Part shown: positions 13,210 to 29,744 of the stretch, in pieces
How the letters are laid out: each line of letters starts with the position of its first letter
Numbering within the stretch: the stretch's first letter is position 1
Notes under the pieces: model-generated
What the model saw: the letters and a program-made list of their open reading frames with translations, nothing else
What the model was told of the DNA's origin: nothing
Databases searched by the model: none
Position numbers and translations under genes: made by a program
Source: an uncultured delta proteobacterium
GTDB taxonomy: Bacteria > Myxococcota_A > Polyangia > Haliangiales > Haliangiaceae
Assembly (NCBI GenBank): GCA_963759105.1
Contig: CAVWXW010000004.1
Span: 47,963-111,962 of the forward strand
Reading direction: 5' to 3'
Length of the DNA stretch: 64,000 bases

Positions 13210-14226
13210 CTCATGATCCGTACGAGCGACCTGCAAGTTCTCCGGACGTCGCTCACCGAGAGCGGCGTCTTCGAGCACAGGACGGCGCAGACCTGGGCGA
13301 AGCTCGTCGTGACTGCTCGCCGCCTCGGCCGTCGTGCTCGCGCTGGTGGCGGTCCTGCCCTGGTGGTGCGCGCTCGTGCTCGTCCCGCTCGCCGCGGTCC
13401 CGGCGGTCACCGCCGCGATGGTCGGCCACGAGGCCGCGCACGGCAGCTTCGCCTCGAGCAAGCGGCACAACGAGCTGGTCCTCCACCTGGTGTTTCCGCT
13501 GTTCGGCGGGCTCGGCGCCCAGTACTGGAAGCACAAGCACAACCACCTCCACCACGGCAATCCGAACGTCGTCGGGCGCGATCCGGACATCGACATGTGG
13601 CCGATGGCGCTGTCGAGCGACGAGCACGCCAGCTCCAGCCGCTTTCGCCGCTGGCTGCAGCGGACGATGCAGGGCCACCTGTTCTGGCCGCTCACGCTGT
13701 TCCTCGCCTTTTCGATGCGATACGACTCCTGGCGCTTCGTCGCGCGACGCGTGCGCGAGCGCGGGCTCGACGGCGCGCTCGCCGCCGACATCGCGTGCCT
13801 GGTCGGCCACTACGCCCTCTGGCTGGCCGTCCCGATGTGGCTGTTCGGCGTCGGGCCGGTCCTGCTGCTCTACGCCGGCCTGTGGGCGACCGCCGGCCTG
13901 CTCCTCGCGCTCATCTTCGCCCCGGCCCACATCGGCCTGCCGGTCCTGGACCGAGAGCAGCGGGGCGGATGGGAGCAACAGCTCGAAACCACGCGAAACC
14001 TGGTCATGCCCCGCTGGCTGTCCTGGTTCTTCGTCGGCCTCGACTTCCAGGTCGAGCACCACCTGTTTCCGAGAATCCCTCACCAGAATCTGGCCCGAGC
14101 CAGCCAGGTCGTCGCACCGTGGTGCGCGGACCTGGGAGCCCCGTACCACCAGCTCGATTACGGTTCGTCGATTCGCCAGGTCACGCGCCACATGAGACTG
14201 TCCTGGCAAGCAGTACCGGAGGTGGC
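13210..14226 (+). CDS. membrane fatty-acid desaturase (three His boxes); N-terminal frameshift near 13320; no stop before the next gene
   Basis: His boxes HEAAHGS, HNHLHHGNPN and QVEHHLFPRIPH, with hydrophobic segments. The frame reads through into CdnL. Confidence 0.7.
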
Positions 14227-14764
14227 GATGGTCAAGGGGAAAGCTTCCAAGCTCCAGAATCTCACTGTCGGTTCTCGCGTCTTCTATCCCGGCCACGGGG
14301 TCGCGAGCGTGACCGGCATGGAAGAGCGCGAGTTCGGCGGCGGCAAGCAGTCGTTCTACGTCCTGGAGCTGGAGCTCGATCGCGGCGTCAAGCTGATGCT
14401 GCCGGTGGGAAAGGTCGAACAGGCGGGCGTGCGCCCGCTGGTCTCGGCCCAGAAGGCCCGCGACCTCCTCAAGGTGGTCAAGGACGCGATCGCGCCGGTG
14501 GACCTCAAGTCGGATCCGGCGTCGCGCAAGCTGCGCGCCACCGGCTACGCCGAGGCGCTGCGCTCCGGCTCCGCCGATCGCTACACCGAGATCCTGGGGG
14601 AGCTCCTGTCGCGCTCGCGAGCGAGCAAGCTGTCCGCGGGCGAGCAGCAGTCCCTCACCCTGGCGCTCGCGATGTTCATCGGCGAGATGAGCGCGGCCCT
14701 GGACATGCAGCCCGACGAAGTGAAGGCGAACCTGGACATCAACACGGAGGCCCGGGTGCCATGA
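14227..14764 (+). CDS. cdnL: CdnL / CarD N-terminal-like RNAP-binding transcription factor
   Basis: MVKGKASKLQNLTVGSRVFYPGHGVASVTGMEEREFGGGKQSFYVLELELDRGVKLMLPVGKVEQAGVRPLVS matches the CarD_CdnL_TRCF RNAP-interaction domain. The 179-aa size is typical of CdnL. Confidence 0.75.
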
Positions 14765-15255
14765 AGGCGGAGGAGCTGCGCGCGCTGCAGGCGCCGCTCA
14801 AGGACAAGTACCGGAGCGAGCCCGGCGCGGCGCGCGTGACGTTGAGCGCGAGCAGCCAGCTCGGCGAGGGGATCGCGTGCCGCATCCAGACCGGCAAGGC
14901 GCTGGTCGAGGCCGGGCTGCATCCCGCCACCGGCGGCGACGGCTCGCAGGCCTGCTCGGGAGACATGCTGCTCGAGGCGCTGGCCGCGTGCTACGGCGTC
15001 ACCATGCGCGCCGTCGCCACGGCGCTCGGGATCGAGCTGCGGGGCGGGACCATCGTGGTCGAGGGCGACCTCGACTTCCGCGGCACGCTCGGCGTGGCCA
15101 AGGACGCGCCGGTCGGCTTCGAGGACATCCGCGTCAGGGCCGAGCTCGACGCCGACATGACCGACGAGCAGCGGGCCTCGCTCGCGAAGCTCACCGAGCG
15201 GTACTGCGTGGTGCTGCAGACCTTGCGCTCGCCGCCGCGCGTTCAGCTCGGCTGA
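14761..15255 (+). CDS. OsmC/Ohr-family protein
   Basis: MKAEELRALQAPLKDKYR...ACSGDMLLEALAACYGVTMRAVATALGIELRGGTIVVEGDLDFRGTLGV...; ATGA overlap with cdnL; 164 aa, intact. Confidence 0.7.
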   Translation: MKAEELRALQAPLKDKYRSEPGAARVTLSASSQLGEGIACRIQTGKALVEAGLHPATGGDGSQACSGDMLLEALAACYGVTMRAVATALGIELRGGTIVVEGDLDFRGTLGVAKDAPVGFEDIRVRAELDADMTDEQRASLAKLTERYCVVLQTLRSPPRVQLG

Positions 15256-16017
15256 CCCGGCCACTGCGAGAGCTCGAACAGCCCGCCATCGACCCAGATG
15301 GTCTGGCCGGTGACGAACGAGGCCTCGTCGCTGGCGAGCCACGCCACCAGCCGCGCCACGTCGTCCGGCGTGCCGATGCGCCCGAGCGGCGTGAGAGCGG
15401 CCCATCGCCCGGCGTAGTCGGGTAGCTCGAGCCGCGTCCGCTCGGTCTCGGTGGCGCCGGGCGCGACGCAGTTCACGCGGATGCGGTGCGCGGCCAGCTC
15501 GAGCGCCGCGACCTTGGTGAACGTCTGGATGCCGCCCTTGCTGGCGGTGTAGGACGCGAGCTTCGGGAAGCCGATCCGGTTGCAGCCGGACCCGATGTTG
15601 ACGATCGCGCCCCCGCCCTGCTCCACCATGTGGCGCGCCGCCGACTGCGTGCACAGAAAGCAGCCCTTGAGGTTGGTGCGGATCACGCGATCCCAGTCCT
15701 CCTCGGTCGGCCTCGAGGAGCGGCGCCCAGACCTGCACGGCGGCGTTGTTGACCAGGAGGTCGATGCGACCGAAGCGCGCGACGACGGCGTCGACCATGG
15801 CGCGCACGTCCGCCGAGACGCCGACGTCGGCCTGCACGGCGAAGGCCTCGCCGCCGAGGTCGGTCACCTCGCGCACCGTCTGTCCGCGCCGGCCGCGATC
15901 GTCGAGGTGGTTGACGGCGATGCGGGCGCCCTCGCGCGCCAGGCGCAGCGCGATGCCGCGTCCGATGCCGCTGCTCGCGCCGGTGACCAGAGCCGACGAT
16001 CCCTCGAGGCGAGTCAT
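15243..16017 (-). CDS. short-chain dehydrogenase/reductase (SDR); one frameshift near 15690
   Basis: N-terminus MTRLEGSSALVTGASSGIGRGIA...LVNNAAVQ (TGxxxGxG, NNAG). C-terminus ...SYTASKGGIQTFTKVAALELAAHRIRVNCVAPGATET (YxxxK). Confidence 0.8.
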
Positions 16018-16028
16018 GCCCGCCCTGT

Positions 16029-16397
16029 TTATCTCACGTCCGTCGACAGGAAGGTCCAGAGACCTGAGCGCCGCGGCCGGTCGTCGAGTGCGTGCCCGGC
16101 CGGCCGCGGCGCCGCGGCCAGGCTGATTACTGCTGCTGCTGCTGCTGCTGGAGCAGCGGTCCGCACAGCGCCTGCTGCCGGCGCTCGACGTTGTTGGGCG
16201 ACTCCATCATCGCCGCCCTGGCGGCCGACCAGGTCGAGGCAGCGCAGGTACGAGTTCGGCTCGTTGGTCTGCTGGCCGGCCCGGACCGTGGCCGACCCGC
16301 CCGGGGTGCTGATGGTCCCCTCGGCCTCGGTCGACCGCGTCTGGCCGCCCGTGACGCGATCGAGGTCGCTCAGGTCGATGCTTTCGAACGTGGTCAT
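16029..16397 (-). CDS. precursor peptide with an N-terminal double-glycine (GG) leader; core region sequence uncertain
   Basis: MTTFESIDLSDLDRVTGG|QTRSTEAEGTISTPGGSATV.... Leader positions -4 V, -7 L, -8 D, -12 I, -15 F and GG at -2/-1 fit the PCAT-cleaved leader consensus. Canonical SD AAGGAG 5 nt upstream of the ATG. An alternate frame ends ...QQALCGPLLQQQQQQQ* (TAA at 16117). Confidence 0.6.
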   Translation of the reverse strand: MTTFESIDLSDLDRVTGGQTRSTEAEGTISTPGGSATVRAGQQTNEPNSYLRCLDLVGRQGGDDGVAQQRRAPAAGAVRTAAPAAAAAAVISLAAAPRPAGHALDDRPRRSGLWTFLSTDVR

Positions 16398-16489
16398 GCT
16401 GGCTCCTTTGTACCGGCGAAGGGTTGATCGACTCGCGGCCGCCGGAACCGCGCATCTCGAGCCGGCAAGTCATCCTTGCCGGCAAGTCC

Positions 16490-17341
16490 TCACTTGCGCG
16501 GAGCCTGCTGCAGGCGGACCTTGCCGACCGAGCCGACGCCGATCGTCTCTCCCTTGATCAGGCGATCGTCGACGTCGGCGTCGGCGACGACGAACTGGAG
16601 CGGCGGCTCCAGGTCGGTCGACACCGTGCGCACGATGGCCTCGAAGGTCGCGCCGCTGGCCGGATCCGTGGCCGCCACCCTGGTCCCCTCCTTGATCAGG
16701 CTGCGGTACTCGCTGTCGACCGCGAACCTGACCCACAGATCACGCGGATCGAACACCCGCGCCACCGGCGTGCCCGGCACCGCGACCTCGCCCTCCTTGA
16801 CCCGGATCATCGAGACCACGCCGTCGATGGGAGCGACCAGCGTGGCGCGGGCCAGGTGCTGCTCGAGCTGCTCGCGCTCGGCCACCGACTGGCGGTACTG
16901 GGCGGCCGAGCTGCTGTAGCTGGCGGACGCGCGGCTGCTGTCGAACCTGGACTGCCGGATGCCCTCGCGGGCCACCGCGCCGCGGCGGTAGAGGCGGCGC
17001 TGCATGCGCATGTCGCGCTTGGACGCGCGGATCTCGACGCCGGCGCGCCCCATCTCGGCGCGGGCCGCGTCCACGGCGGCGACCGCGCCGCTCAGCTGCT
17101 TGCGCACCTGGCTGTCGTCCAGCTTGGCGATCGGCTCGCCGGCGCGCACGCGCTGGCCGGGGTGGACGTAGAGCGCCACCACGCGTCCCTCGAACTCGGA
17201 GGCCACCACCTTCGAGTCGCGAGTGGTGACCACGCCGACGAACTCGAGCGGCGGCGGCGCGGGCCGGCGCGCGGCCGCGGGCGGCAGCGCCGCCGGCGCG
17301 GTGTCGTCGGCGGACGATGTCGGGGAGCCGCACGCGGCCAT
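16490..17341 (-). CDS. HlyD-family membrane-fusion / periplasmic adaptor protein (short, lipoprotein-like N-terminus)
   Basis: MAACGSPTSS...VVTTRDSKVVASEFEGRVVALYVHPGQRVRAGEPIAKLDDSQV...LVAPIDGVVSMIRVKEGEVAVPGTPVARVFDPRDLWVRFAV; biotinyl/lipoyl-like and beta-barrel MFP motifs; 283 aa, intact. Confidence 0.7.
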   Translation of the reverse strand: MAACGSPTSSADDTAPAALPPAAARRPAPPPLEFVGVVTTRDSKVVASEFEGRVVALYVHPGQRVRAGEPIAKLDDSQVRKQLSGAVAAVDAARAEMGRAGVEIRASKRDMRMQRRLYRRGAVAREGIRQSRFDSSRASASYSSSAAQYRQSVAEREQLEQHLARATLVAPIDGVVSMIRVKEGEVAVPGTPVARVFDPRDLWVRFAVDSEYRSLIKEGTRVAATDPASGATFEAIVRTVSTDLEPPLQFVVADADVDDRLIKGETIGVGSVGKVRLQQAPRK

Positions 17342-17377
17342 GACCGGCAGCGCGGCGGCGAAAGCTCGTGCGATTCT

Positions 17378-19630
17378 TCATGCGGCGTCCTCCCACTGGC
17401 GCGACCGGCGGTCGGTGGCGACCACCAGCTCGCGGTACGGCCCGTTCCGGCGCATCAGCTCGTCGTGCGAGCCGATCTCGACCAGCTGGCCGCCCACCAT
17501 GACCAGGATGAAGTCCGAGTTCTGGATCGTGGTCAGGCGGTGGGCGATGGTGATGCGGGTGCAGCGCAGGCGCTCGATGTTGGCGATGACCCGCGCCTCG
17601 GTGGCGTTGTCGAGCGCCGAGGTCCCCTCGTCGATGAACATGACCGCCGGCTGGCGCAGGATGGCGCGGGCCAGGGCGATGCGCTGGCGCTGGCCGCCGG
17701 ACAAGGACGCGCCGCCGTCGGCGACCGGCGTGTCGTAGCCCATCGGCATCTCGAGGATGTCGTCGTGCAGGCAGGCGACGCGGGCCGCCGCCATGATGCG
17801 ATCGAGATCGGCATCCGGCCGGGTCAGCGCGATGTTGTCGCGCAGGCTGGCCCCGAACACGTACGGGTGCTGCGGGACGAAGCCGACCTGCCGGCGAACG
17901 CCGCGCACGTCGACATCGGCCAGGCGGCGGCCGTCGTAGAAGACCGACCCGGAGGTCGGCTGGTACAGGCCGGCGATGAGATTCAGCAGCGTGGTCTTGC
18001 CGGAGCCGGACGGGCCCACGATCGCCACCGACGAGCCGGCCGGAATGTCGAGCGACACGCCGTTGACCACGAGCGGCATGTTGTGGGCGTAGCGGAAGCT
18101 GAGATCGCGAGTGGAGATCTCGCCGCGGATCTCGTGGGCGGTGTGGATGGTGTCCGGGTCCTGCTCGGTCGCGGTCTCGAGCACGTCGTCGACGCGGTCG
18201 ATGTGCGGGCGGGCCAGCTGGAGATCGAGCGCGCTCTCGACCAGCTGCGAAAGCGGGCCGAACAGGCTGGTGGCCAGCGAGTTCATGGCCAGCATGGTGC
18301 CGAGCGACATCTCGCCCTTCATGACGGACATGGCGCCGACGGTGAGGAGCAGCGTGGGGGCCAGGGTGGCGATCGCCTGGCGGATGGAGTCGACCCGCGC
18401 GTCGACGACCCCGCGGCGCAGCCGGATGTTGAGCTCGTCGGCATACAGGTTCGACCAGTGCTCGACCGCCTGCTGCTCGACGCCGGAGCACTTGAGCGTC
18501 TCGATGCCCCCCAGGAACTGGACCAGGAAGCTCTGCGACTTGGCCTGGCGTTCGAGGTTCTCCGCCATCAGCCGCATGTACTTGCCGCGCGCCAGCACGT
18601 AGACGAGGATCTCGAGCGTCACCAGCACGACCACGATGATGCCGAGCTTGGCGCTGACGGCGAACACGATGGCGCCGTACAGCAGGACGAAGGTGCCGTC
18701 GAGCAGCGCGGCCAGGCTCTTGGACGTCACCATCTCGCGCACGGTGCCGTTGCTGCCCAGGCGCATCATGAGGTCGCCGTCGGAGCGCTGCTGGAAGAAG
18801 CGGAACGGCAGCTTGACCAGGTGATCGAGGAAGCCGAGCGTCGAGCGCACGTCGAGCACGGTGCGCAGGTGCATGAGCAGGTACGCGCGCATCACCTCGG
18901 AGATGGCGTTGAAGCCGACCATCATGACGACCGCGAGGCCGGCCACCATGAGCAGGTTGTAGTCGGAGCGCGGAACCACCTGATCGACGATGACGCTGGT
19001 GAGCAGCGGCAGCACCAGCGCGAGGGCGCGCAGGAGCAGCGAGATGATCACGATGCGGTCGAACACGCGGCGCTCGGACAGGAGCTCGCGCGCGTAGCGG
19101 CGCAGCCGGCTGAGGTTGCCGGCGCCCGTCTGGCTGCGGAAGTCCGGCGCCGGCGAAAGCTCCAGCGCGACGCCGGTGAAGCTATCGGCGAACTGCGGCA
19201 GCGGGATGTCGCGCACGCCGACGGCCGGGTCGAAGATCCTGACCGCGCCGTTCTTCACGCGATCGAAGACGACGAAGTGATTGAACTCCCAGTGCAGGAT
19301 GCTGCCGCGCGCGAGCAGCGGGAGCTTCTCGATGTCGACCTTGACGCCGCGGCCGATGAGGCCGAGGCGGGTGCCGGCCTCGAGGATGTTGCGCGCGGTG
19401 ACGCCGTCGCGGGCCAGGCCGAGCTCGTCGCGCACGCGCGCCAGCGCCACCGTGCGTCCGTAGTAGCCCAGCACCATGGCCAGGCAGGCCGCGCCGCAGT
19501 CGGTCCACTCCATCTGCTGGACGAAGGGGATCTTGGGCGCGCCGCCGAAGCCGATGCGGCGCAGCGCGGGGAAGCGGCCGGCGATGGCGCCCTGTCCGTT
19601 CGGATCCTGTGCGGGGCTGCTGGTGGTCAA
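17378..19630 (-). CDS. peptidase-C39-domain ABC transporter (PCAT; bacteriocin/peptide processing-and-export ATPase); intact 750 aa
   Basis: N-terminal C39 domain with catalytic Cys (FVQQMEWTDCGAACLAMVLGYYGRT). Six TM segments. Walker A GPSGSGKTTLLNLIAGL. ABC signature LSGGQRQRIALARAIL. Walker B VMFIDEGTSALD. Confidence 0.9.
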   Translation of the reverse strand: MTTSSPAQDPNGQGAIAGRFPALRRIGFGGAPKIPFVQQMEWTDCGAACLAMVLGYYGRTVALARVRDELGLARDGVTARNILEAGTRLGLIGRGVKVDIEKLPLLARGSILHWEFNHFVVFDRVKNGAVRIFDPAVGVRDIPLPQFADSFTGVALELSPAPDFRSQTGAGNLSRLRRYARELLSERRVFDRIVIISLLLRALALVLPLLTSVIVDQVVPRSDYNLLMVAGLAVVMMVGFNAISEVMRAYLLMHLRTVLDVRSTLGFLDHLVKLPFRFFQQRSDGDLMMRLGSNGTVREMVTSKSLAALLDGTFVLLYGAIVFAVSAKLGIIVVVLVTLEILVYVLARGKYMRLMAENLERQAKSQSFLVQFLGGIETLKCSGVEQQAVEHWSNLYADELNIRLRRGVVDARVDSIRQAIATLAPTLLLTVGAMSVMKGEMSLGTMLAMNSLATSLFGPLSQLVESALDLQLARPHIDRVDDVLETATEQDPDTIHTAHEIRGEISTRDLSFRYAHNMPLVVNGVSLDIPAGSSVAIVGPSGSGKTTLLNLIAGLYQPTSGSVFYDGRRLADVDVRGVRRQVGFVPQHPYVFGASLRDNIALTRPDADLDRIMAAARVACLHDDILEMPMGYDTPVADGGASLSGGQRQRIALARAILRQPAVMFIDEGTSALDNATEARVIANIERLRCTRITIAHRLTTIQNSDFILVMVGGQLVEIGSHDELMRRNGPYRELVVATDRRSRQWEDAA

Positions 19631-19642
19631 GGTCGGCTCCTG

Positions 19643-21163
19643 TCAGAAGATCTTCTCGAGGGCAGGGACGAGCGCGACCAGCACGCGCCGCTTGCGCACG
19701 CTGACCTCGGCCTTGGCGGTCATGCCGTCGTGATAGGTGTAGGTCTTGTCGCGGCTCTCGAAGGTCCGCGACGTCAGCCGGGCGCGCACGATGACGACCG
19801 GCCCCTTGAGGTCGAGCGCGTCGGCGATCTTGTCGCCCACGTAGCGGCGCGCCTCCTGCGGCCCGATCACCTCCTGGCCGACCTCGCCGATGCGGATCTT
19901 CTCGTTCGTCTTCTCGTAGCCGGGGATGTTGAACTGCAGGATCATCCCGGGCCGCAGCCGCGGGCGGTCCTGGCCGGGCAGGAGCGCGATCATCGTCGGC
20001 ATGGTGTTGGCGTCGGCCACGGTCAGGATGTAGCTGCCGGCCTCGAGCCGGCTGCCCTCGCGCACGCGCAGGTCGCTCACCACGCCGTCGCGCGGCGCGC
20101 GGATCGAGCGCGCGTCGAGCACCTGCTTGGCCTTCTGCCGGCGCGCGGCGATCGTCGACAGCGTCGACTTGGCCTCCTGGCTGCCCGGGTCGAACAGGAA
20201 CGTGCCGAGCTGGCGCTCGTACTCGATGAGCACCTCGCCCAGCTCGGCCGACTCGGAGTCGTCGTGCAGCTGGACGAGCAGCTCGCCGGCCTTCACCGTC
20301 TGGCCCGGCTGGACGTAGGTCGCCACCACGGTGCCGCCGGCGCGCGCGGTCACCTCGGTCCCCTCGATGCGGACCACCGCGGACCCGGTGCTGTACTGGT
20401 TGACCTTGCCGATGATCCCGTAGAGCAGGCCGGCGGCCAGGCCGATCAGCACCGCCGGGTAGACCCGGTTGATCCAGCGCGGCGACAGATCGAGCAGCGC
20501 GCCGTCGCGGCGCTGCTCGCGGTGCCGCTCGAGCGCCTGCTCGCGGAACAGGGAGTCCTGGGGGCCGACGCGCTCGCCGCGGGCCAGCGCGGCGTGGACC
20601 GCCGAGAGAAGCAGCGGCCCGACCTGGGCGCCGACGGCGGTCAGGACCATGCCCTCGCGCTGGGTGAACGGCGCGTCGCTGTCGGCGCGCACCGCGAGCA
20701 CGACCGCGATCACGATCTCGCCGGCCACGATCGGGTGGGCCAGGATCTTCTCGTGGCCGGTGCCGCCCGGGTTGTCGACCTCGGGCATGTAGACCGGGCA
20801 GCTGGCGGCCGGCTGGGCGCAGATCTGCTGGCGGTGATACACGGCGAGGCTGGCCAGGCTGTCTGCGTCGGCGCCCGCGCTCCACGGCGCGCCGGTCAGC
20901 GGATCTGCCGTCAGGCAATGCACGCGCACGCAGCCGACCAGCTCCGACAGGCCGTGGCCCAGGACGCGCAGCGACGAGGCCAGGTCGCTCTGCAGCGCGA
21001 TGCGGCGCACCAGCGACAGCACCGCGCCCGGATCGTCCAGCGGCGGCAGCGAGCGCAGCGGCGGGCGCTTCGCGGAGCCCGGCACCGGCGGCGGCCCGCT
21101 CTGCGGCGGTGCTGCCCGCGGGTTGACGGCTGTGTCGGAGTCGTTGACCACCCGGTTGTCCAT
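19643..21163 (-). CDS. HlyD-family secretion protein with an N-terminal GAF-like domain
   Basis: C-terminal MFP: TM YPAVLIGLAAGLLYGIIG, ...VVRIEGTEVTARAGGTVVATYVQPGQTVKAGELLVQL...RAPRDGVVSDLRVREGSRLEAGSYILTV. The N-terminal about 200 aa (LASLAVYHRQQICAQPAASCPVYMPEV...EIVIAVVLAVRADSDAPFTQREGMVLTAVGAQVG) resembles GAF. Confidence 0.7.
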   Translation of the reverse strand: MDNRVVNDSDTAVNPRAAPPQSGPPPVPGSAKRPPLRSLPPLDDPGAVLSLVRRIALQSDLASSLRVLGHGLSELVGCVRVHCLTADPLTGAPWSAGADADSLASLAVYHRQQICAQPAASCPVYMPEVDNPGGTGHEKILAHPIVAGEIVIAVVLAVRADSDAPFTQREGMVLTAVGAQVGPLLLSAVHAALARGERVGPQDSLFREQALERHREQRRDGALLDLSPRWINRVYPAVLIGLAAGLLYGIIGKVNQYSTGSAVVRIEGTEVTARAGGTVVATYVQPGQTVKAGELLVQLHDDSESAELGEVLIEYERQLGTFLFDPGSQEAKSTLSTIAARRQKAKQVLDARSIRAPRDGVVSDLRVREGSRLEAGSYILTVADANTMPTMIALLPGQDRPRLRPGMILQFNIPGYEKTNEKIRIGEVGQEVIGPQEARRYVGDKIADALDLKGPVVIVRARLTSRTFESRDKTYTYHDGMTAKAEVSVRKRRVLVALVPALEKIF

Positions 21164-21305: not shown

Positions 21306-22916
21306 CTAATCGAGCACCTCGATGTCGTAGCGCTTCAGGATGTCGCCGGTCAGCGACTGCAGCACGGCCACCGACTGGTGGTAGTCGGCGATGGCGCGCA
21401 CGCGCGACAGCCGGGCCTCGTCGAGGTCGTCCTGGCGGTCGAACAGCTGCTGGCTGGTCGACTTCCCGACGCGGAACAGCGCGCGCTCGGAGGTGAGGCT
21501 GCCCTTGGCCAGCTCGATCGCCTTTGTCGCGACCTGGGCCCGCTTCTGCGCCGCGCGGATCTGGTGCACGGTCAGCACGATGGCGGACGCGATCTCGCGG
21601 CGGAGCTCCGCGCGCTCGATGCTGACGTCCTGGTGGCGCAGCAGGGCGGCGTCGCGGCGCCCGCGCGCCGTGTTGGCTCCGATGTCGATCGAGAAGACCA
21701 GCGCCGCGGTGGCGTTGACGTTGGCGCCGCGGTCCAGGGCGCGGAACGCCTCGTCGACGTTGCTGCCGGCCGCGGTGGCGGCGGCCGAGACGGTGAAGTC
21801 GAGCCGGGGCCGCACGCCGTCGCGCGCGACCCGCACCTCGATCTTCGAGTCCTCGTCGTCGAGCTCGATCGCGGCGAGGGCGTAGTTGCGGGCCAGGCCG
21901 CGCTCGACCAGCTTTCCCACCGCGTAGGTCTCGGCGCCGGCGCCCGGCAGATCGGCCGGCCACAGCGCGATCGCGCCGCCGCCGATCTCGAGGCCGGCCA
22001 GCTTGCGCAGCTCGAGTGCCTGCTCCTCCAGCACCAGCTCGGCGCGCAGCTGCGCCTCCTCGCGGACCGCCATCGTGTACTCGGCCAGCTTGAGGTCACC
22101 GGTCGGGCGGCCGCCCTCTTTCACGACCTGCTCGGTCTCCTTGTGCAGCTTGCGCACCGCCACCAGCGAGGAGCGCTTCACCTCGAGGGCCAGGGCGGCG
22201 TGGGCAAGCTCCCAGTAGCCGCGCACGACGTCGCGGGTCAGCTCGCCGGCGGCCACCTTGGCGCGCAGCGCGGCGGCCGAGGTCCGGACAGCCGCCTGCT
22301 CGCGATCGGCGCGCGCGATCGGGCGGCCGAAGCCGCGCAGGAGCGAGTGGTTGAGGACCAGCCGACCCGATGCCTGGCTGACCTGGGAGCTGGACTGCTT
22401 CGGCTCGGCGCCGCTCATGTCCAGGTTCTCGACCAGGCTGGTCTCCTGCGAGCGGGCGGCGTTCGCCTCGAGTCGCAGCTGGCCGCCGGTGGGCAGGTCG
22501 CGGATTAGCGCGGCCCTGCCGCCGACGCGCTCCTGCTCGACGACCTGCACCGGCTGGCCCGGGACGCGATCTCTCGTCACCCGCGCCCCGTCGATGGCCA
22601 GCTCGAGCTGCCAGTCGTCGCGGCCGCGCACCGCCCGCTCCTCGGCCCGCGCGATGGCGGCGCTGGTGCGCGCGCGGGCCAGGCCAGGCGAGCGCAGGAC
22701 GGTGACGTCGATCAGCTGGTCGACTCCGATCCGCTCGACCGGCTCCGCCTGCGGCGCGGCCTCCTGGGTCTGCGGCGCCTCCTGCGGGCCCTGCGCCCCC
22801 GGTTGTCGCCTGGCGCGCCGCCTGTCGGCGGCCAGCGGCGGCGCGGCGACGCAGACCGCGGTGACGACCAGCGCCGCCGAGCACCATCTCGCCTCGCGGA
22901 TGCTGCTCAGTGGCAC
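21306..22916 (-). CDS. TolC-family outer-membrane efflux protein
   Basis: 536 aa from a GTG start (overlaps the upstream gene by 10 nt). Signal peptide PLSSIREARWCSAALVVTAVCVAAPPLAA. Two repeated coiled-coil / beta-barrel halves typical of OEP family. Ends ...QSLTGDILKRYDIEVLD*. Confidence 0.65.
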   Translation of the reverse strand: MPLSSIREARWCSAALVVTAVCVAAPPLAADRRRARRQPGAQGPQEAPQTQEAAPQAEPVERIGVDQLIDVTVLRSPGLARARTSAAIARAEERAVRGRDDWQLELAIDGARVTRDRVPGQPVQVVEQERVGGRAALIRDLPTGGQLRLEANAARSQETSLVENLDMSGAEPKQSSSQVSQASGRLVLNHSLLRGFGRPIARADREQAAVRTSAAALRAKVAAGELTRDVVRGYWELAHAALALEVKRSSLVAVRKLHKETEQVVKEGGRPTGDLKLAEYTMAVREEAQLRAELVLEEQALELRKLAGLEIGGGAIALWPADLPGAGAETYAVGKLVERGLARNYALAAIELDDEDSKIEVRVARDGVRPRLDFTVSAAATAAGSNVDEAFRALDRGANVNATAALVFSIDIGANTARGRRDAALLRHQDVSIERAELRREIASAIVLTVHQIRAAQKRAQVATKAIELAKGSLTSERALFRVGKSTSQQLFDRQDDLDEARLSRVRAIADYHQSVAVLQSLTGDILKRYDIEVLD

Positions 22917-23935
22917 GGATCCCACGCCGTGCCGTTGTCGCCGATGTCGATGAGATTGCCGATCTCCTCGATGTAGAGGTCGAGGTCCTCCGCGCGACAC
23001 TGCGACAGCGACGTGTTGTTGATCGCGATGACCGAGCCGCCGACGGAATACAGATTCACGGCCAGCTCGTAGATGTCGGTGAGGGTCGTGTTGCCCTCGA
23101 CGGCCAGGTTGCCGCCGACGTGGTTGAACGTCGCGGTGAAGCCGTTGAGGTTCTGCAGCGCGCCGTTGCGCTCGATGCTCAGGTTGCCGCCGACGGTCTG
23201 GAGGTCGCTGAACGCCTTGAGCTCGGTCATGTCCGGGTTGTCGGCGATGCGGACCTCGCCCTGCACGCTGACCACGTTGAGCTGCAGCGCGCGCAGGCCG
23301 GTGTTGCCGGCGACGACGAGCTCGCCGGCCGACTCGATGCGCCGGACGGTCTGCAGATTTGTGAGGCCGCTGTTGTTCTCGACCCGGAACGAGCCCTCGA
23401 CCCGCTCGAGCGTCTCGAGGTCCTGGAGGCCCTCGAGGGCGCTGTTGTCGCGGATCGACAGGCCGCCGGTGCCGACGTCGCGCAGGGCGCGCAGGCCGGC
23501 GAGGCTGACCAGCTGCGGGTTCTTGCTGATCGTCACCCGCGCGACGGTGTCGGTGCGGTCGAGCCCGTAGACGTCGCCCAGCATCGGGTTGTTGTCGATC
23601 TCGACGTGCTGCAGCACCTTGACCCGGTCGAGCCCGGCGAAGCTGAGCAGCTGCGGGTTGTCCTTGACCCGCAGCACGTTGGCCTGGCGCAGGTAGAACA
23701 GCGGCTCGAGGTCGGCCAGGTCGGAGCCGACCACCTCGACGTCGCCCGAGACGGTGAAGCACTTCTGCGGCAGGGAGCGGGCGTCGCTCGCGCTGCGCAC
23801 GATGATGTTGGCGTTGAGGGTCTCGCAGTCCTCGTCGATGTCCGTGGGCTGCTGGTAGCCGACGTCGGTGGGCATGCAGCCGAACAACCCGACGGCGGCG
23901 ATCGCGATGGCGGAGAGGTGGATCGTGGGGCGCAT
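22907..23935 (-). CDS. lipoprotein with leucine-rich-repeat-like (receptor L-domain-like) repeats
   Basis: MRPTIHLSAIAIAAVGLFGC lipobox. Repeating units ...NPQLxSxxGLxxLxxV..LxIxxNxxL about every 24 aa. 343 aa. Confidence 0.6.
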   Translation of the reverse strand: MRPTIHLSAIAIAAVGLFGCMPTDVGYQQPTDIDEDCETLNANIIVRSASDARSLPQKCFTVSGDVEVVGSDLADLEPLFYLRQANVLRVKDNPQLLSFAGLDRVKVLQHVEIDNNPMLGDVYGLDRTDTVARVTISKNPQLVSLAGLRALRDVGTGGLSIRDNSALEGLQDLETLERVEGSFRVENNSGLTNLQTVRRIESAGELVVAGNTGLRALQLNVVSVQGEVRIADNPDMTELKAFSDLQTVGGNLSIERNGALQNLNGFTATFNHVGGNLAVEGNTTLTDIYELAVNLYSVGGSVIAINNTSLSQCRAEDLDLYIEEIGNLIDIGDNGTAWDPCH

Positions 23936-23949
23936 GAACGCCCCAAAGA

Positions 23950-23964
23950 GCACGGCCTGTGCCA
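23950..23964 (-). promoter_or_regulatory. putative sigma54 (-24/-12) promoter for the lipoprotein-TolC-HlyD-PCAT operon
   Basis: Minus strand reads TGGCAC-AGGCC-GTGC (GG-N10-GC spacing) about 15 nt upstream of the lipoprotein ATG. The -12 element is GTGC, not the consensus TTGC. Confidence 0.45.
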
Positions 23965-24126
23965 TGGCCCGCGATGCGCAAGTGGGCGGGCCGCGCGGCG
24001 TCCGGCGCCGGCCTCGCCTGCCGCGCGGCGGCGCTCGGGGGGCTCGCCCCCGATCGTTGCTGCACACGGTCGGCGCAAGCCCGCGCCGGCCGGCGGGCGT
24101 TGTGTTGTAGGCTGGTGATCGTGGAG

Positions 24127-25464
<1,338 letters not shown>

Positions 25465-25633
25465 CGCGGCGCGTTCGGTAGCGACATACCGCCGGCGAGC
25501 GCGACGCCCTGTTGTAGAGCCGGATCGACAGGGGGTGGGTACCCGATCCGCCAGAACGCCGCGGGCCGCGCCGGAACCGTCGAGGTTGCCGTGACCTGGC
25601 CCTCGGTATGTTGCTTGCACCACGCATTCTTCA

Positions 25634-26611
<978 letters not shown>

Positions 26612-26671: not shown

Positions 26672-26887
26672 CTAGCGGCGCCTTCGCCCGCCGCGCGGGT
26701 CCTGAAACATCTGCATCATCATCATCATCATGAGCATGTCGTTGCTGTTGTCCTGAGGAGGAGGGCATGGGCACTGCATGTTGAAGAAGTTCCTGTCTCC
26801 GCGGCGTCCACCACCGCATCCACCAGCAACGTCGTCGAGCTCCTCGAGCGCAAACTCTGGCATCTTGTTGTCGTCGTCCATGGGCAT
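26672..26887 (-). CDS. precursor peptide 2 with a double-glycine leader and a Met/Cys-rich core
   Basis: MPMDDDNKMPEFALEELDDVAGG|CGGGRRGDRNFFNMQCPCPPPQDNSNDMLMMMMMMQMFQDPRGGRRRR*. Leader positions -4 V, -7 L, -8 E, -12 F, -15 M. SD AAGGAAGG upstream. Terminator downstream. 36 nt downstream of the beta-barrel A gene. Confidence 0.65.
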   Translation of the reverse strand: MPMDDDNKMPEFALEELDDVAGGCGGGRRGDRNFFNMQCPCPPPQDNSNDMLMMMMMMQMFQDPRGGRRRR

Positions 26888-26923: not shown

Positions 26924-28270
26924 TCAGAAACGAAAGACGGCCTGGCCGGTCGCGCCGATGAAGGCGTCCACGGCCCCGATGACGTCCTGATCGAGGTCCT
27001 CGTCGAGCGCGACGGCCAGGTCGCCCGAGCCCTCGAAGTCGAGGGCGAAGCGCGTGTAGGCGGCGGCGACGCGGACCAGGATGCGCTCGAGCAGCTCGAC
27101 CTCGAGCCCCACCTCTCCTCTCAGCCCGTAGCTGCCGGCGGCGCCGAAGGCCGCCTGGTCGGTGATACCGGACGTGGCGACCGTGTGGAGGTAGCTGCCG
27201 GCTCCGAAGACCGTCGCGCGGCCGAGCTCGTAGCGGACACCGCCGCCCGCGTCGATGAAGGCGTAGCGCGCGTCCGGCACCATCAGGCCGGGCGGCCGGA
27301 TGCCGACCTCGTAGCGCAGCTCGCTGTAGCCGAGCTGGAAGGTGGGCACCCAGCGCTTCTTGACGCGCAGGCGGCCGCGCAGGGCCGCGGCCCACTGCAT
27401 CTGGGTGACCGGCAGCTCGACCCCCTCGCTGCCGCCGAGTGACATGCCGGCGTTGATCGACCTGTCGATCGCCACCGCCAGCCCGATGGCCGGCTCACCC
27501 GGGGTGCTGGCCTCGGCCTCGACGTGCAGGCCCGGCGACGGGTTGGCCGACAGCGAGGCGTCGCCGACCAGGCCCGGCTCCTGCGAGAAGGCGAGCTTGC
27601 GCGCGGTGGCCGAGAGGCCGACCCCGGCCTCGAAGACCAGCGGGAAGCGGCGCTCGGGGGCCGCCTTGCCCCGCTTGCGAGCGGCCTCGGGGCGCGCCTT
27701 GCTGACGTCGCGGTCGGCGATGTCGACCCGGCCCTGCGCCTGCACGTCCGCGCGGTGCTGCGGCTGCGGCTGCGGTTCCGGAACCGCCTGGCCGGGCGGG
27801 CCGTCGTGGGTGCGGTCCGGATCGATCCACACAAGTAGATCTCCCAGCAGCCGCGCGATGCGCGCCCGCGCGGCCGGCGTCATCTCGGCGGTGGCCAGCG
27901 GCACCAGCACCGCCCCGACGCTCTCGCCGTCACCGGCGCGCAGCACCGACAGGCTCAGCGCGTAGGCCTCGCTGGAGGCCGCGACCTCGCCGACGACGAC
28001 AGCGTCGGCGCCGGCCATGCGGGCCATGGCCAGCGCCGCGGCCGGCTCGCTGCCGTCGGTCCCGGCCAGCTCGCGGGCCTGCTCGAGCCGCGCGGCCGGC
28101 ACCACCGCATAGCGGGCGCCGACCACGTCCACCACGACCGCGCGCGCCTCGCTGGCGACCACCTCGGGGCCGGCGAAGGGTGCGACGGCGATGAGCCTCG
28201 TCTCCGCCCGCGCGGGGGCGGCGGCGGTGAGGACAGCGAGTACGACGAAGCACGCGAGCAGCCTGGACAT
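26924..28270 (-). CDS. outer-membrane beta-barrel protein with an N-terminal periplasmic domain (paralog A)
   Basis: Signal peptide MSRLLACFVVLAVLTAAAPARA. N-terminal domain IAVAPFAGPEV...AGADAVVVGEV. Alternating beta-strand pattern. Ends ...GATGQAVFRF* (OMP-type terminal Phe). 448 aa. Confidence 0.6.
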   Translation of the reverse strand: MSRLLACFVVLAVLTAAAPARAETRLIAVAPFAGPEVVASEARAVVVDVVGARYAVVPAARLEQARELAGTDGSEPAAALAMARMAGADAVVVGEVAASSEAYALSLSVLRAGDGESVGAVLVPLATAEMTPAARARIARLLGDLLVWIDPDRTHDGPPGQAVPEPQPQPQHRADVQAQGRVDIADRDVSKARPEAARKRGKAAPERRFPLVFEAGVGLSATARKLAFSQEPGLVGDASLSANPSPGLHVEAEASTPGEPAIGLAVAIDRSINAGMSLGGSEGVELPVTQMQWAAALRGRLRVKKRWVPTFQLGYSELRYEVGIRPPGLMVPDARYAFIDAGGGVRYELGRATVFGAGSYLHTVATSGITDQAAFGAAGSYGLRGEVGLEVELLERILVRVAAAYTRFALDFEGSGDLAVALDEDLDQDVIGAVDAFIGATGQAVFRF

Positions 28271-28283
28271 TGGTCCCTCCACC

Positions 28284-29708
28284 TCAGAGTCGGAAGCCGA
28301 GCATGACGACGCCGCCGACGTAGGTGTCGGTGGCTCCACTGACGTCAACGTCCGAGCTCTCGTCGAGCCCGGTCGCCCACGCGCCGTCGCCGTTGAACGC
28401 GAGGATGATGCGCTGATAGGTCGCGGCGACGCGCACGAAGGTCGTGTCGCCGGCGTCGATCTCGAGGCCGACCTCGCCGCCGAAGCCGTGAAAGCGCGAG
28501 CTGCCGAACGCGGTGGCCGCCGTGATGCCGCCAGCGCTGAGCACGTGCAGGTACCACAGGTCGGCGCTGATCGAGAGGCGGTCGTCGCGCAGGCTGAGCC
28601 GCGCGCCGCCGCCGACATCGGCGTAGGCGTAGCGCGAGTCGGGGATGAGCAGCCCGTTGGGCCGGTTCGAGATGGCGAAGCCGAGCTGGTGATAGCCGGC
28701 GCCGCCGCGCACGTTCACGCGCTTGTGCACGGCGCGCCGGATCATCAGCCGGGCGCCGATGTGCTGGAGCGAGATGCCGAGCTGCTTTGTCTGCCCGCCG
28801 GCGGGAAAGGAGACCGAGGCGCCGATCGACCGCTGGTACACGAGGTCGGCGGACAGGCCGAGCGGGTTGACGTCGACGGTGCCGGACACGGCGACGCCGC
28901 CCGACGGGCTGCCCGACATGCTGAGCGGGCGCTCGTCCTCGGCCAGGTCGATCTGGTGCGCGAACTGGAGCTGGCGCGCGATGGCGGCCACGCCGACCGC
29001 GGCGCGCACCTGCATGGCCGGCGGCCGGCGCTTCGCCGCCCTGGCTCTGGCCCGGTCGCGCTGCTCGGCGACCGACCACTTCTCGACCGAGGCCTCCTGC
29101 TTCTGCTGGGCGGCGGTGAGCGACGCGCGCGCGGCGCCGGGGGCCTCGTTGCCGATCTGGCCGGGCTGGGTGATCACGGCCGCGGGGGCGGCCTGATCCA
29201 CGCCGGCCGCGACGGCGCCGTCGGTCTCGCCGTTGAGCGGCTCGGTCCAGTCGATGAGGTCGACCAGCTCGTCGATGATCGCCTCGCGGGTCGCTTCCGA
29301 AACGCGCTTGCCGCGGGCGTTGACGCTGAAGCGGTCCATCACGCGGCCGGTGCGCCCCTCGCGCACCGCGATGGTCAGCTTGCCGCCCTGCACCTCCCCC
29401 TCGATGATCGCGTCCGCGCCTACCTTCCTGGCCACCTGGGCCACGGACTTCATCGACTCCTTCGTGACGTTGAGGCGGCGGCGCGCGAGCCTGTACCTGC
29501 CGTACGGCAGGACCTCGTACAGGTCGGAGACGATCTCGAGGATCACGTCGTGCATGGCCTTCGACGTGGGGGCCGGCCCCACGAAGTCGGCGACCACGAC
29601 GCGCCGCTCCTGCTCCGCGCGCGCCCGGGGCGGCGCGGCGACCAGGACGGCAAACGCCGCCGCGAGCGCGGCGATGCGAGTGCAGGGCACGTGGATGTCT
29701 CGACTCAT
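28284..29708 (-). CDS. outer-membrane beta-barrel protein with an N-terminal periplasmic domain (paralog B)
   Basis: MSRDIHVPCTRIAALAAAFAVLVAAPPRARA. VVVADFVGPAP...VGADAIIEGEV. Ends ...GGVVMLGFRL*. Clearly paralogous to 26924..28270. Confidence 0.6.
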   Translation of the reverse strand: MSRDIHVPCTRIAALAAAFAVLVAAPPRARAEQERRVVVADFVGPAPTSKAMHDVILEIVSDLYEVLPYGRYRLARRRLNVTKESMKSVAQVARKVGADAIIEGEVQGGKLTIAVREGRTGRVMDRFSVNARGKRVSEATREAIIDELVDLIDWTEPLNGETDGAVAAGVDQAAPAAVITQPGQIGNEAPGAARASLTAAQQKQEASVEKWSVAEQRDRARARAAKRRPPAMQVRAAVGVAAIARQLQFAHQIDLAEDERPLSMSGSPSGGVAVSGTVDVNPLGLSADLVYQRSIGASVSFPAGGQTKQLGISLQHIGARLMIRRAVHKRVNVRGGAGYHQLGFAISNRPNGLLIPDSRYAYADVGGGARLSLRDDRLSISADLWYLHVLSAGGITAATAFGSSRFHGFGGEVGLEIDAGDTTFVRVAATYQRIILAFNGDGAWATGLDESSDVDVSGATDTYVGGVVMLGFRL

Positions 29709-29726
29709 GCGAATCACCGTCGATGA

Positions 29727-29744
29727 GTGCAACGGCGATGCCAC
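29727..29744 (-). promoter_or_regulatory. near-consensus sigma54 promoter upstream of the beta-barrel B / A / peptide 2 transcription unit
   Basis: Minus strand reads GTGGCAT-CGCCG-TTGCAC (TGGCAT-N5-TTGCA, with GG-N10-GC spacing), about 20 nt upstream of the ATG at 29708. Confidence 0.55.

Follow-up and report, generated by a model that had tools for sequence, protein, structure and literature searches.

[quoted passage not shown] This reading is built on the open reading frames of the window, their alignments with relatives and database comparisons. All features of the peptide gene lie on the minus strand:

16397..16029, minus strand: listed ORF, 122 aa, N-terminus MTTFESIDLSDLDRVTGG
16403..16408, minus strand: Shine-Dalgarno AAGGAG, followed by the 5-nt CCAGC and then the ATG at 16397..16395
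16344..16397, minus strand: double-glycine leader MTTFESIDLSDLDRVTGG, 18 codons, predicted cleavage after Gly18
16212..16397, minus strand: precursor CDS segment 1, codons 1-62, from the ATG to ...LVGRQGG, collinear with homologues
16211, minus strand: single extra base, C on the plus strand and G on the coding strand, CAG GGC GGC [G] ATG ATG
16127..16210, minus strand: precursor CDS segment 2 in the +1 frame, MMESPNNVERRQQALCGPLLQQQQQQQ followed by TAA at 16129..16127
16130..16150, minus strand: (CAG)7 repeat encoding the C-terminal Gln7 tail
16029..16210, minus strand: spurious Ala/Arg-rich tail of the 122-aa ORF, in the ATG frame and not coding

A frameshift in the peptide gene

GC3 of the ATG frame is 1.00 to ~16260, after which the signal shifts to the +1 frame near 16250-16230; counted by codon, it is 0.9-1.0 across codons 1-62 and 0.3-0.55 in the ATG frame after codon ~60. 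In a DNA alignment, the extra base at 16211 is missing from all six relatives (L001, L004, L005, L007, L008 and L009), and among the seven sequences aligned the insertion is seen in the window only. Without this base the CDS is 270 nt long with a GC3 of 0.956, and the repaired precursor of 89 aa ends with LLQQQQQQQ*. The +1 frame reads ...ERRQQALCGPLLQQQQQQQ*, and the homologues have the uninterrupted reading ...LVGRQGGMMESPNNVERRQQALCGPLL(Q/G/N)n. An initial annotation had taken the 104 aa that follow the Gly-Gly in the listed ATG frame for spurious Ala/Arg-rich sequence and had suggested that the core switches frame. Both proposals are borne out, the former by the collapse of GC3 and by the lack of such a tail in every homologue except P0013, which is the database copy of the window's own frameshifted ORF, and the latter by the GC3 profile together with the one-base insertion. 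The poly-Gln ending that it gave for the +1 frame also holds, but the TAA that it placed at 16117 is found ~10 nt away, at 16129..16127.

As read from these sequence data, the 122-aa ORF is a frameshift artefact, and the predicted true product is the 89-aa precursor. The chance that the 122-aa ORF is itself the true product, with a long Ala/Arg-rich C-terminus, is practically nil: the ORF is uninterrupted, is preceded by a good Shine-Dalgarno sequence and has been deposited as an identical protein (P0013), but P0013 fits the family profile over residues 1-62 only, the +1 frame takes over where GC3 drops, and the +1 reading is continued by every homologue. The GC3 profile and the homologue alignments thus refute this candidate. 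Programmed +1 frameshifting was also rejected: in each of the six relatives, one frame encodes the whole peptide.

From the comparison with relatives, an indel error of assembly or sequencing is the most likely source of the extra base at 16211. Alternatively, the frameshift is a genuine mutation and the peptide gene has recently become a pseudogene in this genome, along with the SDR gene, the desaturase gene and the start of the second HlyD gene, which would also be decaying; functional copies would in that case persist in relatives. At least four frame-breaking indels, at 13314-13358, 15704-15712, 16211 and 17334-17383, were found within 13.3-17.4 kb by comparison with relatives, whereas none occurs in the ~8 kb that contain the PCAT, first HlyD, outer-membrane efflux protein, Receptor-L-like and enhancer-binding protein genes. 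This clustering of four indels in ~4 kb, the position of the extra G outside any long homopolymer and the presence of the same 122-aa product in public databases (P0013) are consistent with decay. We nevertheless consider it improbable, since P0013 is probably derived from the same assembly, the out-of-frame 3' segment is otherwise undamaged and agrees with the consensus of the homologues except in the variable C-terminal tail, the repaired CDS keeps its high GC3, and housekeeping-type neighbors also carry indels, a pattern better explained by assembly error than by selective decay.

Leader and start signals

A double-glycine leader was taken to be an N-terminal leader of ~15-30 aa that ends with Gly-Gly (or GA/GS) immediately in front of the core. 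The leader found here has 18 aa, ends with TGG and carries V-4, L-7, D-8, I-12 and F-15 in addition to G-2 and G-1. It thereby follows the consensus L(-12)xxxE(-8)L(-7)xxxxG(-2)G(-1) (PMC6959990), with I-12, D-8 and L-7 at the corresponding positions and a hydrophobic V-4. The initial annotation had described a PCAT-type leader with Gly-Gly and an AAGGAG 5 nt before the ATG; the leader positions are confirmed and conserved in a 32-member alignment, and the AAGGAG is indeed at 16408..16403 and is kept before the ATG in all aligned relatives. Repair of the frame leaves the ATG, leader and ORF intact, and related genomes also conserve the leader. Its identification as a double-glycine precursor is thus upheld, and the adjacent PCAT would serve it. 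Curated leader models of the TIGR01847 type, proposed at the outset as a check, did not recognize the repaired peptide: NCBIfam had 0 families at E<=1, and Pfam yielded nothing significant, its ComC model (PF03047) matching residues 2-21 weakly (E 0.24, 11.7 bits vs. a cutoff of 20.4). This result weighs little, because HMMs for short leaders are insensitive.

Peptide family and predicted structure

Leader and core are shared by 18 database proteins with E values from 1e-16 to 7e-45 and a query coverage of 88-100%, except P0013 (67%) and one protein with an upstream-extended start, a degree of conservation beyond what chance would give. The homologues are 85-97 aa long, with a range of 85-96 aa in this set of 18 apart from the two exceptions. 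The family comprises 22 representatives at 50% identity among 1.84 billion proteins, carries no annotation and comes from metagenomes, a Kofleriaceae MAG and a "delta proteobacterium" MAG. Pattern scans gave loci in 2 genomes and 7 metagenome contigs, but the patterns used were narrow, and these small counts therefore understate the family. In the alignment of 32 members, G-1, G-2, L-7 and V/I-4 are found in all 32, I/V/L-12 in 31 and D/E-8 in 21; invariant across the family are M1, L-7, G-2, G-1, C53 and C78. The Gln tail varies among relatives in length and composition (QQQQGQ, NQQQQ, NQPQQ, ADK and KKN), and the poly-Gln run is limited to the subclade of the window rather than being a family feature. 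The dN/dS of residues 46-80 is ~0.15-0.26, similar to that of the PCAT (0.21-0.26), and that of residues 19-45 is ~0.8-1.6, on few sites. From these values we infer that the C-terminal module is the constrained part of the peptide, and that the Ser/Thr/Gly-rich N-terminal half and the Gln-rich tail may vary freely. The peptide gene is an orthologue present once, at a conserved locus; more distant family members sit among housekeeping genes and have no PCAT next to them.

The repaired precursor consists of the leader MTTFESIDLSDLDRVTGG and the core QTRSTEAEGTISTPGGSATVRAGQQTNEPNSYLRCLDLVGRQGGMMESPNNVERRQQALCGPLLQQQQQQQ, which has 71 aa, a mass of about 7,730 Da or 7.7 kDa, a pI of 6.3 and a GRAVY of -1.0 and is thus strongly hydrophilic. 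Two AlphaFold runs, with 16 and 32 homologues, gave a mean pLDDT of ~60, which makes the models usable for secondary structure only; both contain a leader helix, a beta hairpin at residues 21-44 and helices at 49-60 and 67-86 (helix pLDDT 70-75). The core probably carries one disulfide, Cys53-Cys78. A Foldseek search of the PDB with the peptide model found no meaningful fold match (best E 1.2), and a profile search of PDB sequences returned only noise at E>1.

Export operon and neighboring genes

The peptide gene is the last gene of an operon in which outer-membrane efflux protein, HlyD, PCAT and HlyD are encoded in this order on the same strand. The genes of this operon and those divergent from it are as follows:

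22907..23965, minus strand: predicted lipoprotein, Receptor-L/LRR-like, first operon gene (Pfam Recep_L_domain 1.5e-07)
21306..22880, minus strand: outer-membrane efflux protein (OEP), TolC-like (Pfam OEP 6.6e-17)
19643..21163, minus strand: HlyD-family membrane-fusion protein 1 (Pfam HlyD_3 5.7e-12), with a weak N-terminal GAF-like region (GAF_2 0.004)
17378..19630, minus strand: PCAT (Pfam Peptidase_C39 4.5e-32, ABC_membrane 3.1e-29, ABC_tran 4.5e-32)
16490..17383, minus strand: HlyD-family membrane-fusion protein 2 (Pfam HlyD_3 1.4e-20, NCBIfam RND_mfp)
24127..25464, plus strand: divergent FHA-domain sigma-54 enhancer-binding protein (Pfam Sigma54_activat 3.7e-67, FHA 2.9e-14)
25634..26611: Ser/Thr kinase following the FHA enhancer-binding protein (Pfam Pkinase 1.3e-37)

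The N-terminal domain of the PCAT matches LahT (6mpz, 3.5e-29) and PCAT1 (4ry2, E 1.4e-16). In its C39 domain, at residues ~30-165, Cys (tdCGaa), His (nHFVV) and Asp (DP) have aligned counterparts in both LahT and PCAT1 and Gln has one in PCAT1, so that by residue alignment the predicted cognate transporter has a C39 domain with Gln, Cys, His and Asp. As an OEP and membrane-fusion proteins (MFPs) are encoded, a diderm host is implied. The second HlyD is a lipoprotein in relatives; in the window, the ATG that overlaps the stop codon of the PCAT gene does not share the reading frame of the lipobox, and 49 nt separate the ATG from the Cys codon vs. 45 in L007 and 54 in L009.

The order of OEP, HlyD1, PCAT and HlyD2 is the same in L001, where the OEP is 71% identical to that of the window and the Receptor-L-like lipoprotein and the divergent enhancer-binding protein are also syntenic. 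A HlyD gene precedes the peptide gene in every close relative with upstream sequence (L001, L005/L006, L007/L008, L009, L012, L013 and L014), and the PCAT is present wherever the contig reaches (L001, L005/L006, L007 in truncated form, L009 and L014). Downstream of the peptide gene, an SDR is encoded in the window, L004, L007 and L009, a DUF4328 protein in L001 and an ArsR-type HTH protein in L005. No adjacent conserved gene for a small inner-membrane immunity protein was found in the flanks of the window, L001, L004, L005, L007 and L009, although a tiny ORF lacking annotation might have escaped notice, and neither modification enzymes nor a glycosyltransferase were seen among the operon genes scanned. 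A second, Met-rich family of GG peptides is encoded nearby.

Spacer and other non-coding elements

The upstream HlyD stop (TGA 16492..16490) is separated from the peptide ATG by a spacer of 92 nt. Three repeat elements were found in the spacer and beyond the end of the repaired CDS:

16486..16475, minus strand: palindrome CTTGCCGGCAAG, 12 nt, exact, starting 3 nt after the HlyD stop
16470..16461, minus strand: partial repeat ACTTGCCGGC, 5 nt from palindrome CTTGCCGGCAAG
16068..16112, minus strand: perfect 13-bp GC-rich inverted repeat (GCGCCGCGGCCGG ... CCGGCCGCGGCGC), from 15 nt past the true stop

The spacer with a duplicated palindrome that the initial annotation had described is present, at 92 nt instead of 90 bp, but the suggested role of the palindrome as a regulator site finds no support. 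The palindrome is kept in L009 (93% identical) only and is absent from L007 (~90%), L005 and L001; because it is present in the closest relative only, the regulator-site reading is unsupported. An exact 12-nt palindrome with a partial copy inside the short spacer, retained in L009, could be the operator of a transcription factor controlling the peptide gene, yet L007, L005 and L001 keep the gene and its Shine-Dalgarno sequence without the motif, which lies immediately past the HlyD stop and ~90 nt before the ATG. The two copies also pair as a simple 9-bp hairpin, GCCGGCAAG-GATGA-CTTGCCGGC, that begins 6 nt past the HlyD stop, the spacer as a whole folds no better than shuffled sequences (z -1.77), and the layout resembles a local tandem duplication of ~17 nt. 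An operator is thus very improbable and was rejected for want of conservation beyond L009.

The inverted repeat at 16068..16112 is possibly a transcript-end hairpin, without a U tract; its MFE (z -1.37) is not exceptional for its GC content. Scans of 15900-16700 for sigma-70 promoters and intrinsic terminators found none, and a search with a sigma-54 promoter pattern gave 16 matches vs. 17 expected. One sigma-54 pattern match lies near the operon start, at 23964..23949, within or next to the start of the first gene.

Comparison with known systems

MccV has 88 aa with one C-terminal disulfide. Class II microcins, e.g., microcin V/ColV with CvaB/CvaA/TolC, resemble the peptide described here in that they are ribosomal and apparently unmodified, have a mature size of <10 kDa (71 aa and 7.7 kDa here), lose a double-glycine leader of 15-18 aa to a C39 PCAT, as is predicted here, and are exported in one step through an MFP and a TolC-like channel, as the genes of the operon suggest. 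The locus thus combines a Gram-negative producer, a core of <10 kDa that is apparently unmodified and genes for a PCAT, MFP and TolC-type protein; the adjacent small inner-membrane immunity protein of this class was not found. The Cys pair suggests a disulfide like those borne by class IIa microcins (PMC12219008). Unlike class II microcins, the peptide has no sequence similarity to curated microcin or bacteriocin models and a hydrophilic core, its operon encodes two MFPs and a dedicated OEP, and it is found in Myxococcota-type MAGs rather than Enterobacterales, with orthologous instead of patchy conservation.

The build of the precursor is nearly equal to that of CtA, the PCAT1 substrate of Clostridium thermocellum, which combines a leader of 24 aa with a cargo of 66 aa (PMC6959990) compared with 18 and 71 aa here, and which is also encoded beside its PCAT. 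Leader recognition of CtA uses the positions -12, -7 and -4 and the GG (PMC6959990). In contrast to the operon found here, CtA belongs to a Gram-positive host without an MFP or OEP, and the two cargos have no detectable sequence relationship. The best NCBIfam model of the PCAT is TIGR03796 NHLM_micro_ABC1 (3.7e-182), and the HlyD proteins weakly match TIGR03794, which are features shared with NHLP/Nif11 systems, but the PCAT scores 607.2 bits against a TIGR03796 cutoff of 853.3, and the leader of the peptide is short and classical, with no long NHLP/Nif11 domain. With the PCAT below this cutoff and no NCBIfam precursor match for the peptide, we do not place it among the NHLP/Nif11 RiPP precursors. 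The glycocin/sublancin type, with two nested disulfides and an S/O-glycosyltransferase, was set aside as well, the family having one invariant Cys pair only. Gram-positive double-glycine pheromones have a mature part of ~17-27 aa. The ComC/CSP and BlpC pheromones share with the peptide the leader type and the C39 ABC export that is predicted here, the weak Pfam ComC match being a further likeness, but differ in that the mature part here is 71 aa and that no histidine kinase/response regulator pair is encoded adjacently.

Proposed mechanism and role

Based on the features described above, we propose that the leader helix would dock on the C39 domain via I-12, L-7 and V-4, and that the PCAT would cleave the precursor after Gly18. 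Transport of the 71-aa core out of the cell may then proceed in one step through the PCAT, both membrane-fusion proteins and the TolC-like OEP. Outside, the Cys53-Cys78 disulfide would staple a helix-loop-helix of roughly residues 49-86 and the mature peptide would act as an extracellular effector. Counted against this explanation were the lack of a match to curated leader or bacteriocin HMMs, the lack of an adjacent immunity gene, the hydrophilicity of the core, which is unlike many membrane-active microcins, the location of distant members away from a PCAT and the low confidence of the models.

By analogy, the effector may be an antagonistic peptide similar to class II microcins but with no immunity gene dedicated to it, a role to which we give somewhat less than an even chance. 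That it serves instead as an intercellular signal or regulatory factor, loosely analogous to ComC/ComAB, is possible but rather doubtful. Such a signal might be sensed, e.g., by the Receptor-L-like lipoprotein and feed the adjacent pair of Ser/Thr kinase and FHA/sigma-54 activator. The occurrence of just one orthologous copy, at a conserved locus where no immunity gene was found, the constraint on the C-terminal module, the hydrophilic and soluble product, the distant members among housekeeping genes and the FHA enhancer-binding protein encoded next door in divergent orientation in the window as well as in L001, with the kinase adjacent in the window, are all in keeping with signaling. Yet 71 aa far exceed the size of known GG-leader pheromones, a histidine kinase/response regulator pair is absent, sigma-54 promoters are not above chance and the regulators are linked to the peptide by adjacency alone. 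The more specific proposal that the peptide is a signaling or developmental factor of Kofleriaceae-type myxobacteria, acting through the Receptor-L lipoprotein and the kinase/FHA/sigma-54 module, and not a bacteriocin, is unlikely. The probability that remains beyond the microcin-like and signaling roles falls to some other extracellular role.

Implications

These results correct the annotation of a deposited 122-aa "hypothetical protein" to an 89-aa secreted-peptide precursor, as predicted from its repaired frame, and define a small, previously unnamed family of double-glycine-leader peptides of uncultured soil Myxococcota, with a complete four-component export apparatus adjoining the peptide gene. 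With cleavage site, mature mass and disulfide all specified, the prediction lends itself to a direct test. Antibacterial activity of the peptide would extend the range of class-II-microcin-like toxins to predatory myxobacteria, and a signaling role would make it an unusual case of peptide communication in a Gram-negative lineage known for social behavior. Should the signaling or developmental role be true, the system would parallel, in a Gram-negative lineage, the double-glycine pheromone circuits of Gram-positive bacteria, its ligand being a disulfide-stapled peptide of 71 aa, and this exporter would also carry the neighboring Met-rich GG peptides.

The Peptide Gene and Its Frame

The putative precursor peptide is encoded by the last gene of a transporter operon, on the same strand and 3' of the second of two HlyD-family membrane-fusion proteins. 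The genes and sites are as follows.

24127-26611, plus strand: FHA-domain sigma-54 enhancer-binding protein, then Ser/Thr protein kinase; both diverge from the operon
22907-23965, minus strand: lipoprotein with a Receptor-L/LRR-like domain, operon gene 1
21306-22880, minus strand: TolC-like outer-membrane efflux protein (OEP), operon gene 2
19643-21163, minus strand: HlyD-family adaptor with a weak GAF-like N-terminus, operon gene 3
17378-19630, minus strand: peptidase-containing ABC transporter (PCAT), operon gene 4
16490-17383, minus strand: second HlyD-family adaptor, operon gene 5
16486..16475, minus strand: palindrome CTTGCCGGCAAG in the 92-nt spacer
16470..16461, minus strand: partner repeat ACTTGCCGGC in the same spacer
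16408..16403, minus strand: Shine-Dalgarno AAGGAG, separated from the ATG by CCAGC (5 nt)
ATG 16397..16395 to stop at 16029, minus strand: uncorrected peptide ORF, 122 aa, opening MTTFESIDLSDLDRVTGG
16211 (plus-strand C; gene on the minus strand): single extra base

The leader carries V-4, L-7, D-8, I-12 and F-15, counted back from Gly-Gly, so that both the leader positions and the AAGGAG 5 nt upstream of the ATG are as the initial annotation had described them. Its sole factual slip is the alternative TAA stop, placed at 16117, which lies at 16129..16127 and ends a frame reading ...LLQQQQQQQ.

Because the window is 72% G+C, GC3 is a sensitive indicator of frame. The ATG frame starts at a GC3 of 0.90-1.00, keeps it to ~16260 and then drops to 0.3-0.55, while the +1 frame climbs to 0.9-1.0. 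The nucleotide alignment reads CAG GGC GGC ATG ATG in all five related loci and CAG GGC GGC G ATG ATG in the window. Deletion of 16211 yields a CDS of 270 nt with a GC3 of 0.956 and a precursor of 89 aa, and L009, a MAG contig 93.4% identical to the window, has an intact peptide gene ending in ...GRQGGVMESPNNVERRQQALCGPLLQQQQGQ before its stop. The GC3 shift, the homologues in one frame and the restored precursor therefore mark the rest of the 122-aa ORF, rich in Ala and Arg, as spurious; the frame switch suspected in the core is real and consists of one extra base. Programmed frameshifting is excluded, since all relatives encode the peptide in one frame.

Relative to close relatives, three more frame breaks were located close to the peptide gene by protein-to-DNA comparison.

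17334-17383: first (signal-peptide) codons of the upstream HlyD lipoprotein
15704-15712: SDR gene directly downstream of the peptide
13314-13358: fatty-acid desaturase/CarD fusion gene

In the HlyD lipoprotein, 49 nt separate the ATG from the lipobox Cys codon, vs. 45 and 54 nt in relatives. Alignment to relatives stays in one frame for the PCAT, the OEP, the first HlyD, the Recep_L-like protein and the sigma-54 activator. The clustering of four breaks within 4 kb might point to genuine local gene decay by mutation, but the peptide gene is otherwise undamaged in its out-of-frame 3' part, which makes decay improbable and an assembly or sequencing indel at 16211 the favored and quite likely explanation. 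Gene calls around 13314-17383 are untrustworthy unless corrected.

The Spacer and the Operon in Relatives

Between the HlyD stop (TGA 16492..16490) and the peptide ATG are 92 nt, in which pairing of the two palindrome copies gives a 9-bp hairpin, GCCGGCAAG-GATGA-CTTGCCGGC, starting 6 nt past the stop. This element had been proposed as a possible regulator site, which our comparison does not support: it is found in L009 only and is missing from three related loci, L007 (~90% identical), L005 and L001, which keep the Shine-Dalgarno sequence and the peptide gene, and the spacer folding energy is ordinary (z -1.77). A sigma-54-like motif with one mismatch, TGGCACAGGCCGTGCT, occurs at 23964..23949; such matches are as frequent as expected by chance.

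The gene order from activator to peptide is the same in L001, a metagenome contig of ~81-87% nucleotide identity. A HlyD gene lies 5' of the peptide in all close relatives with upstream sequence (L001, L005/L006 of a Kofleriaceae MAG, L007/L008, L009, L012, L013 and L014), and a PCAT lies upstream of that HlyD wherever the contig extends far enough. In L007 (GCA_973417575.1), ~877 nt near position 3100, equivalent to window 18890-19767, are missing, either by real deletion or by misassembly; the gap spans the end of the first HlyD and the C39 domain of the PCAT, leaving a called 968-aa HlyD-ABC fusion without peptidase.

Among solved double-glycine proteases, LahT (6mpz, 3.5e-29), PCAT1 and ComA match the N-terminal domain of the window PCAT; the Cys (tdCGaa), His (nHFVV) and Asp (DP) of this domain align with theirs, and its Gln with that of PCAT1. 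From this match and these residues, the transporter is judged by sequence to be a genuine processing PCAT rather than one with an inactive C39-like domain.

An unrelated second double-glycine-leader peptide may share this transporter.

26675..26887, minus strand: MPMDDDNKMPEFALEELDDVAGG followed by CGGGRRGDRNFFNMQCPCPPPQDNSNDMLMMMMMMQMFQDPRGGRRRR and a stop
26924-28246 and 28284-29744, minus strand: two adjacent signal-peptide-bearing proteins, just upstream of the second peptide

The second peptide contains a poly-Met stretch, carries RRRR at its C-terminus and matched no NCBIfam model; it is probably another cargo of this PCAT. In L001 (1-578), at least three tandem homologues adjoin the same sigma-54 activator, which is syntenic there, and no kinase is called in the interval from the activator to the Met-rich peptide genes. 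The two signal-peptide proteins look paralogous, and one has a weak outer-membrane beta-barrel match (PF13505, E 0.0027).

The Peptide Family

Searching with the repaired peptide returned 18 proteins (E 1e-16 to 7e-45), all but two of which have lengths of 85-96 aa and span 88-100% of the query. These read ...YLRCLDLVGRQGGMMESPNNVERRQQALCGPLL, then a short Gln/Gly/Asn-rich tail. The exceptions are P0013, which has 122 aa, is 100% identical to the query over the first two thirds of the latter and is evidently the database copy of the same frameshifted ORF, and P0016, whose called start is further upstream. Among 1.84 billion representatives, no more than 22 proteins matched the family profile at E<=1e-3, and none of these is informatively named or contains a Pfam domain.

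In a 32-member alignment, M1, L-7, G-2, G-1, Cys53 and Cys78 are invariant, -4 is V or I throughout and -12 is I, V or L in 31 members. The leader is conserved among relatives, and its pattern is the same as the recognition code from structural work on PCAT1 and LahT, in which -7 and -12 form a hydrophobic knot, -4 gives specificity and Gly-Gly occupies the active site (PMC6959990). Within the core, the motifs EPxxYLRC(L), Q(G/A)Gxx(E/Q)S and RQxxLCGP(L) are conserved; two members have a second Cys pair. For residues 46-80, dN/dS is ~0.15-0.26, the same as for the PCAT gene (0.21-0.26), which shows purifying selection on this C-terminal module, while for residues 19-45, the N-terminal half of the core, it is ~0.8-1.6, near neutral over few sites. 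A (CAG)7 repeat restricted to the window's subclade encodes the poly-Gln tail; relatives end in QQQQGQ, NQQQQ, NQPQQ, ADK, KKN and others.

Distant members (~38-47% identity to the repaired peptide) have no adjoining PCAT, unrelated neighbors and sometimes two tandem copies. They are L011, with a single copy between dnaJ and a lytic-transglycosylase region, L016-L018, with a tandem pair next to a beta-lactamase-like gene, and the contig of the database protein P0025.

The predicted mature peptide has 71 aa, 7.73 kDa, a pI of 6.3, a GRAVY of -1.0 and no hydrophobic segment. Two AlphaFold runs (alignment depths of 16 and 32 sequences) agree on a secondary structure in which the leader is helical, residues 21-44 form a beta hairpin and two more helices span 49-60 and 67-86, with pLDDT of ~70-75 on the helices and ~60 overall. 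Each modeled helix carries one invariant Cys, a placement compatible with a disulfide-stapled helical hairpin. No solved structure matched the peptide in searches by sequence or by fold.

Proposed Mechanism and Role

By sequence and context the window peptide qualifies as a double-glycine PCAT substrate, as initially read: it has a canonical leader with the exact recognition residues conserved and adjoins a complete set of PCAT, membrane-fusion and OEP components whose protease is apparently active. We propose that the leader would dock on the C39 domain, that cleavage would follow Gly18, that the core would be exported across both membranes in one step and that the disulfide would form outside the cell, after export. 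The locus would work like the class II microcin system MccV/CvaAB/TolC, and the precursor is built similarly to that of CtA/PCAT1. An NHLP/Nif11 system was rejected because TIGR03796, the best model for the PCAT, scores below its cutoff and no long leader is present.

By default and by analogy (PMC12219008), the peptide may be a class-II-microcin-like antagonist, a tentative assignment with somewhat less than an even chance. An adjacent immunity gene is a defining feature of class II microcins, and none adjoins the peptide in the window or in any other locus examined. This absence, together with the unusual hydrophilicity, the orthologous conservation and the adjacent regulators, suggests a signaling or regulatory role instead, although the regulators bear on it through adjacency only, and we consider such a role rather doubtful. 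The window peptide matched no curated family, and our verdict is that it represents a new sequence family inside a well-known kind.
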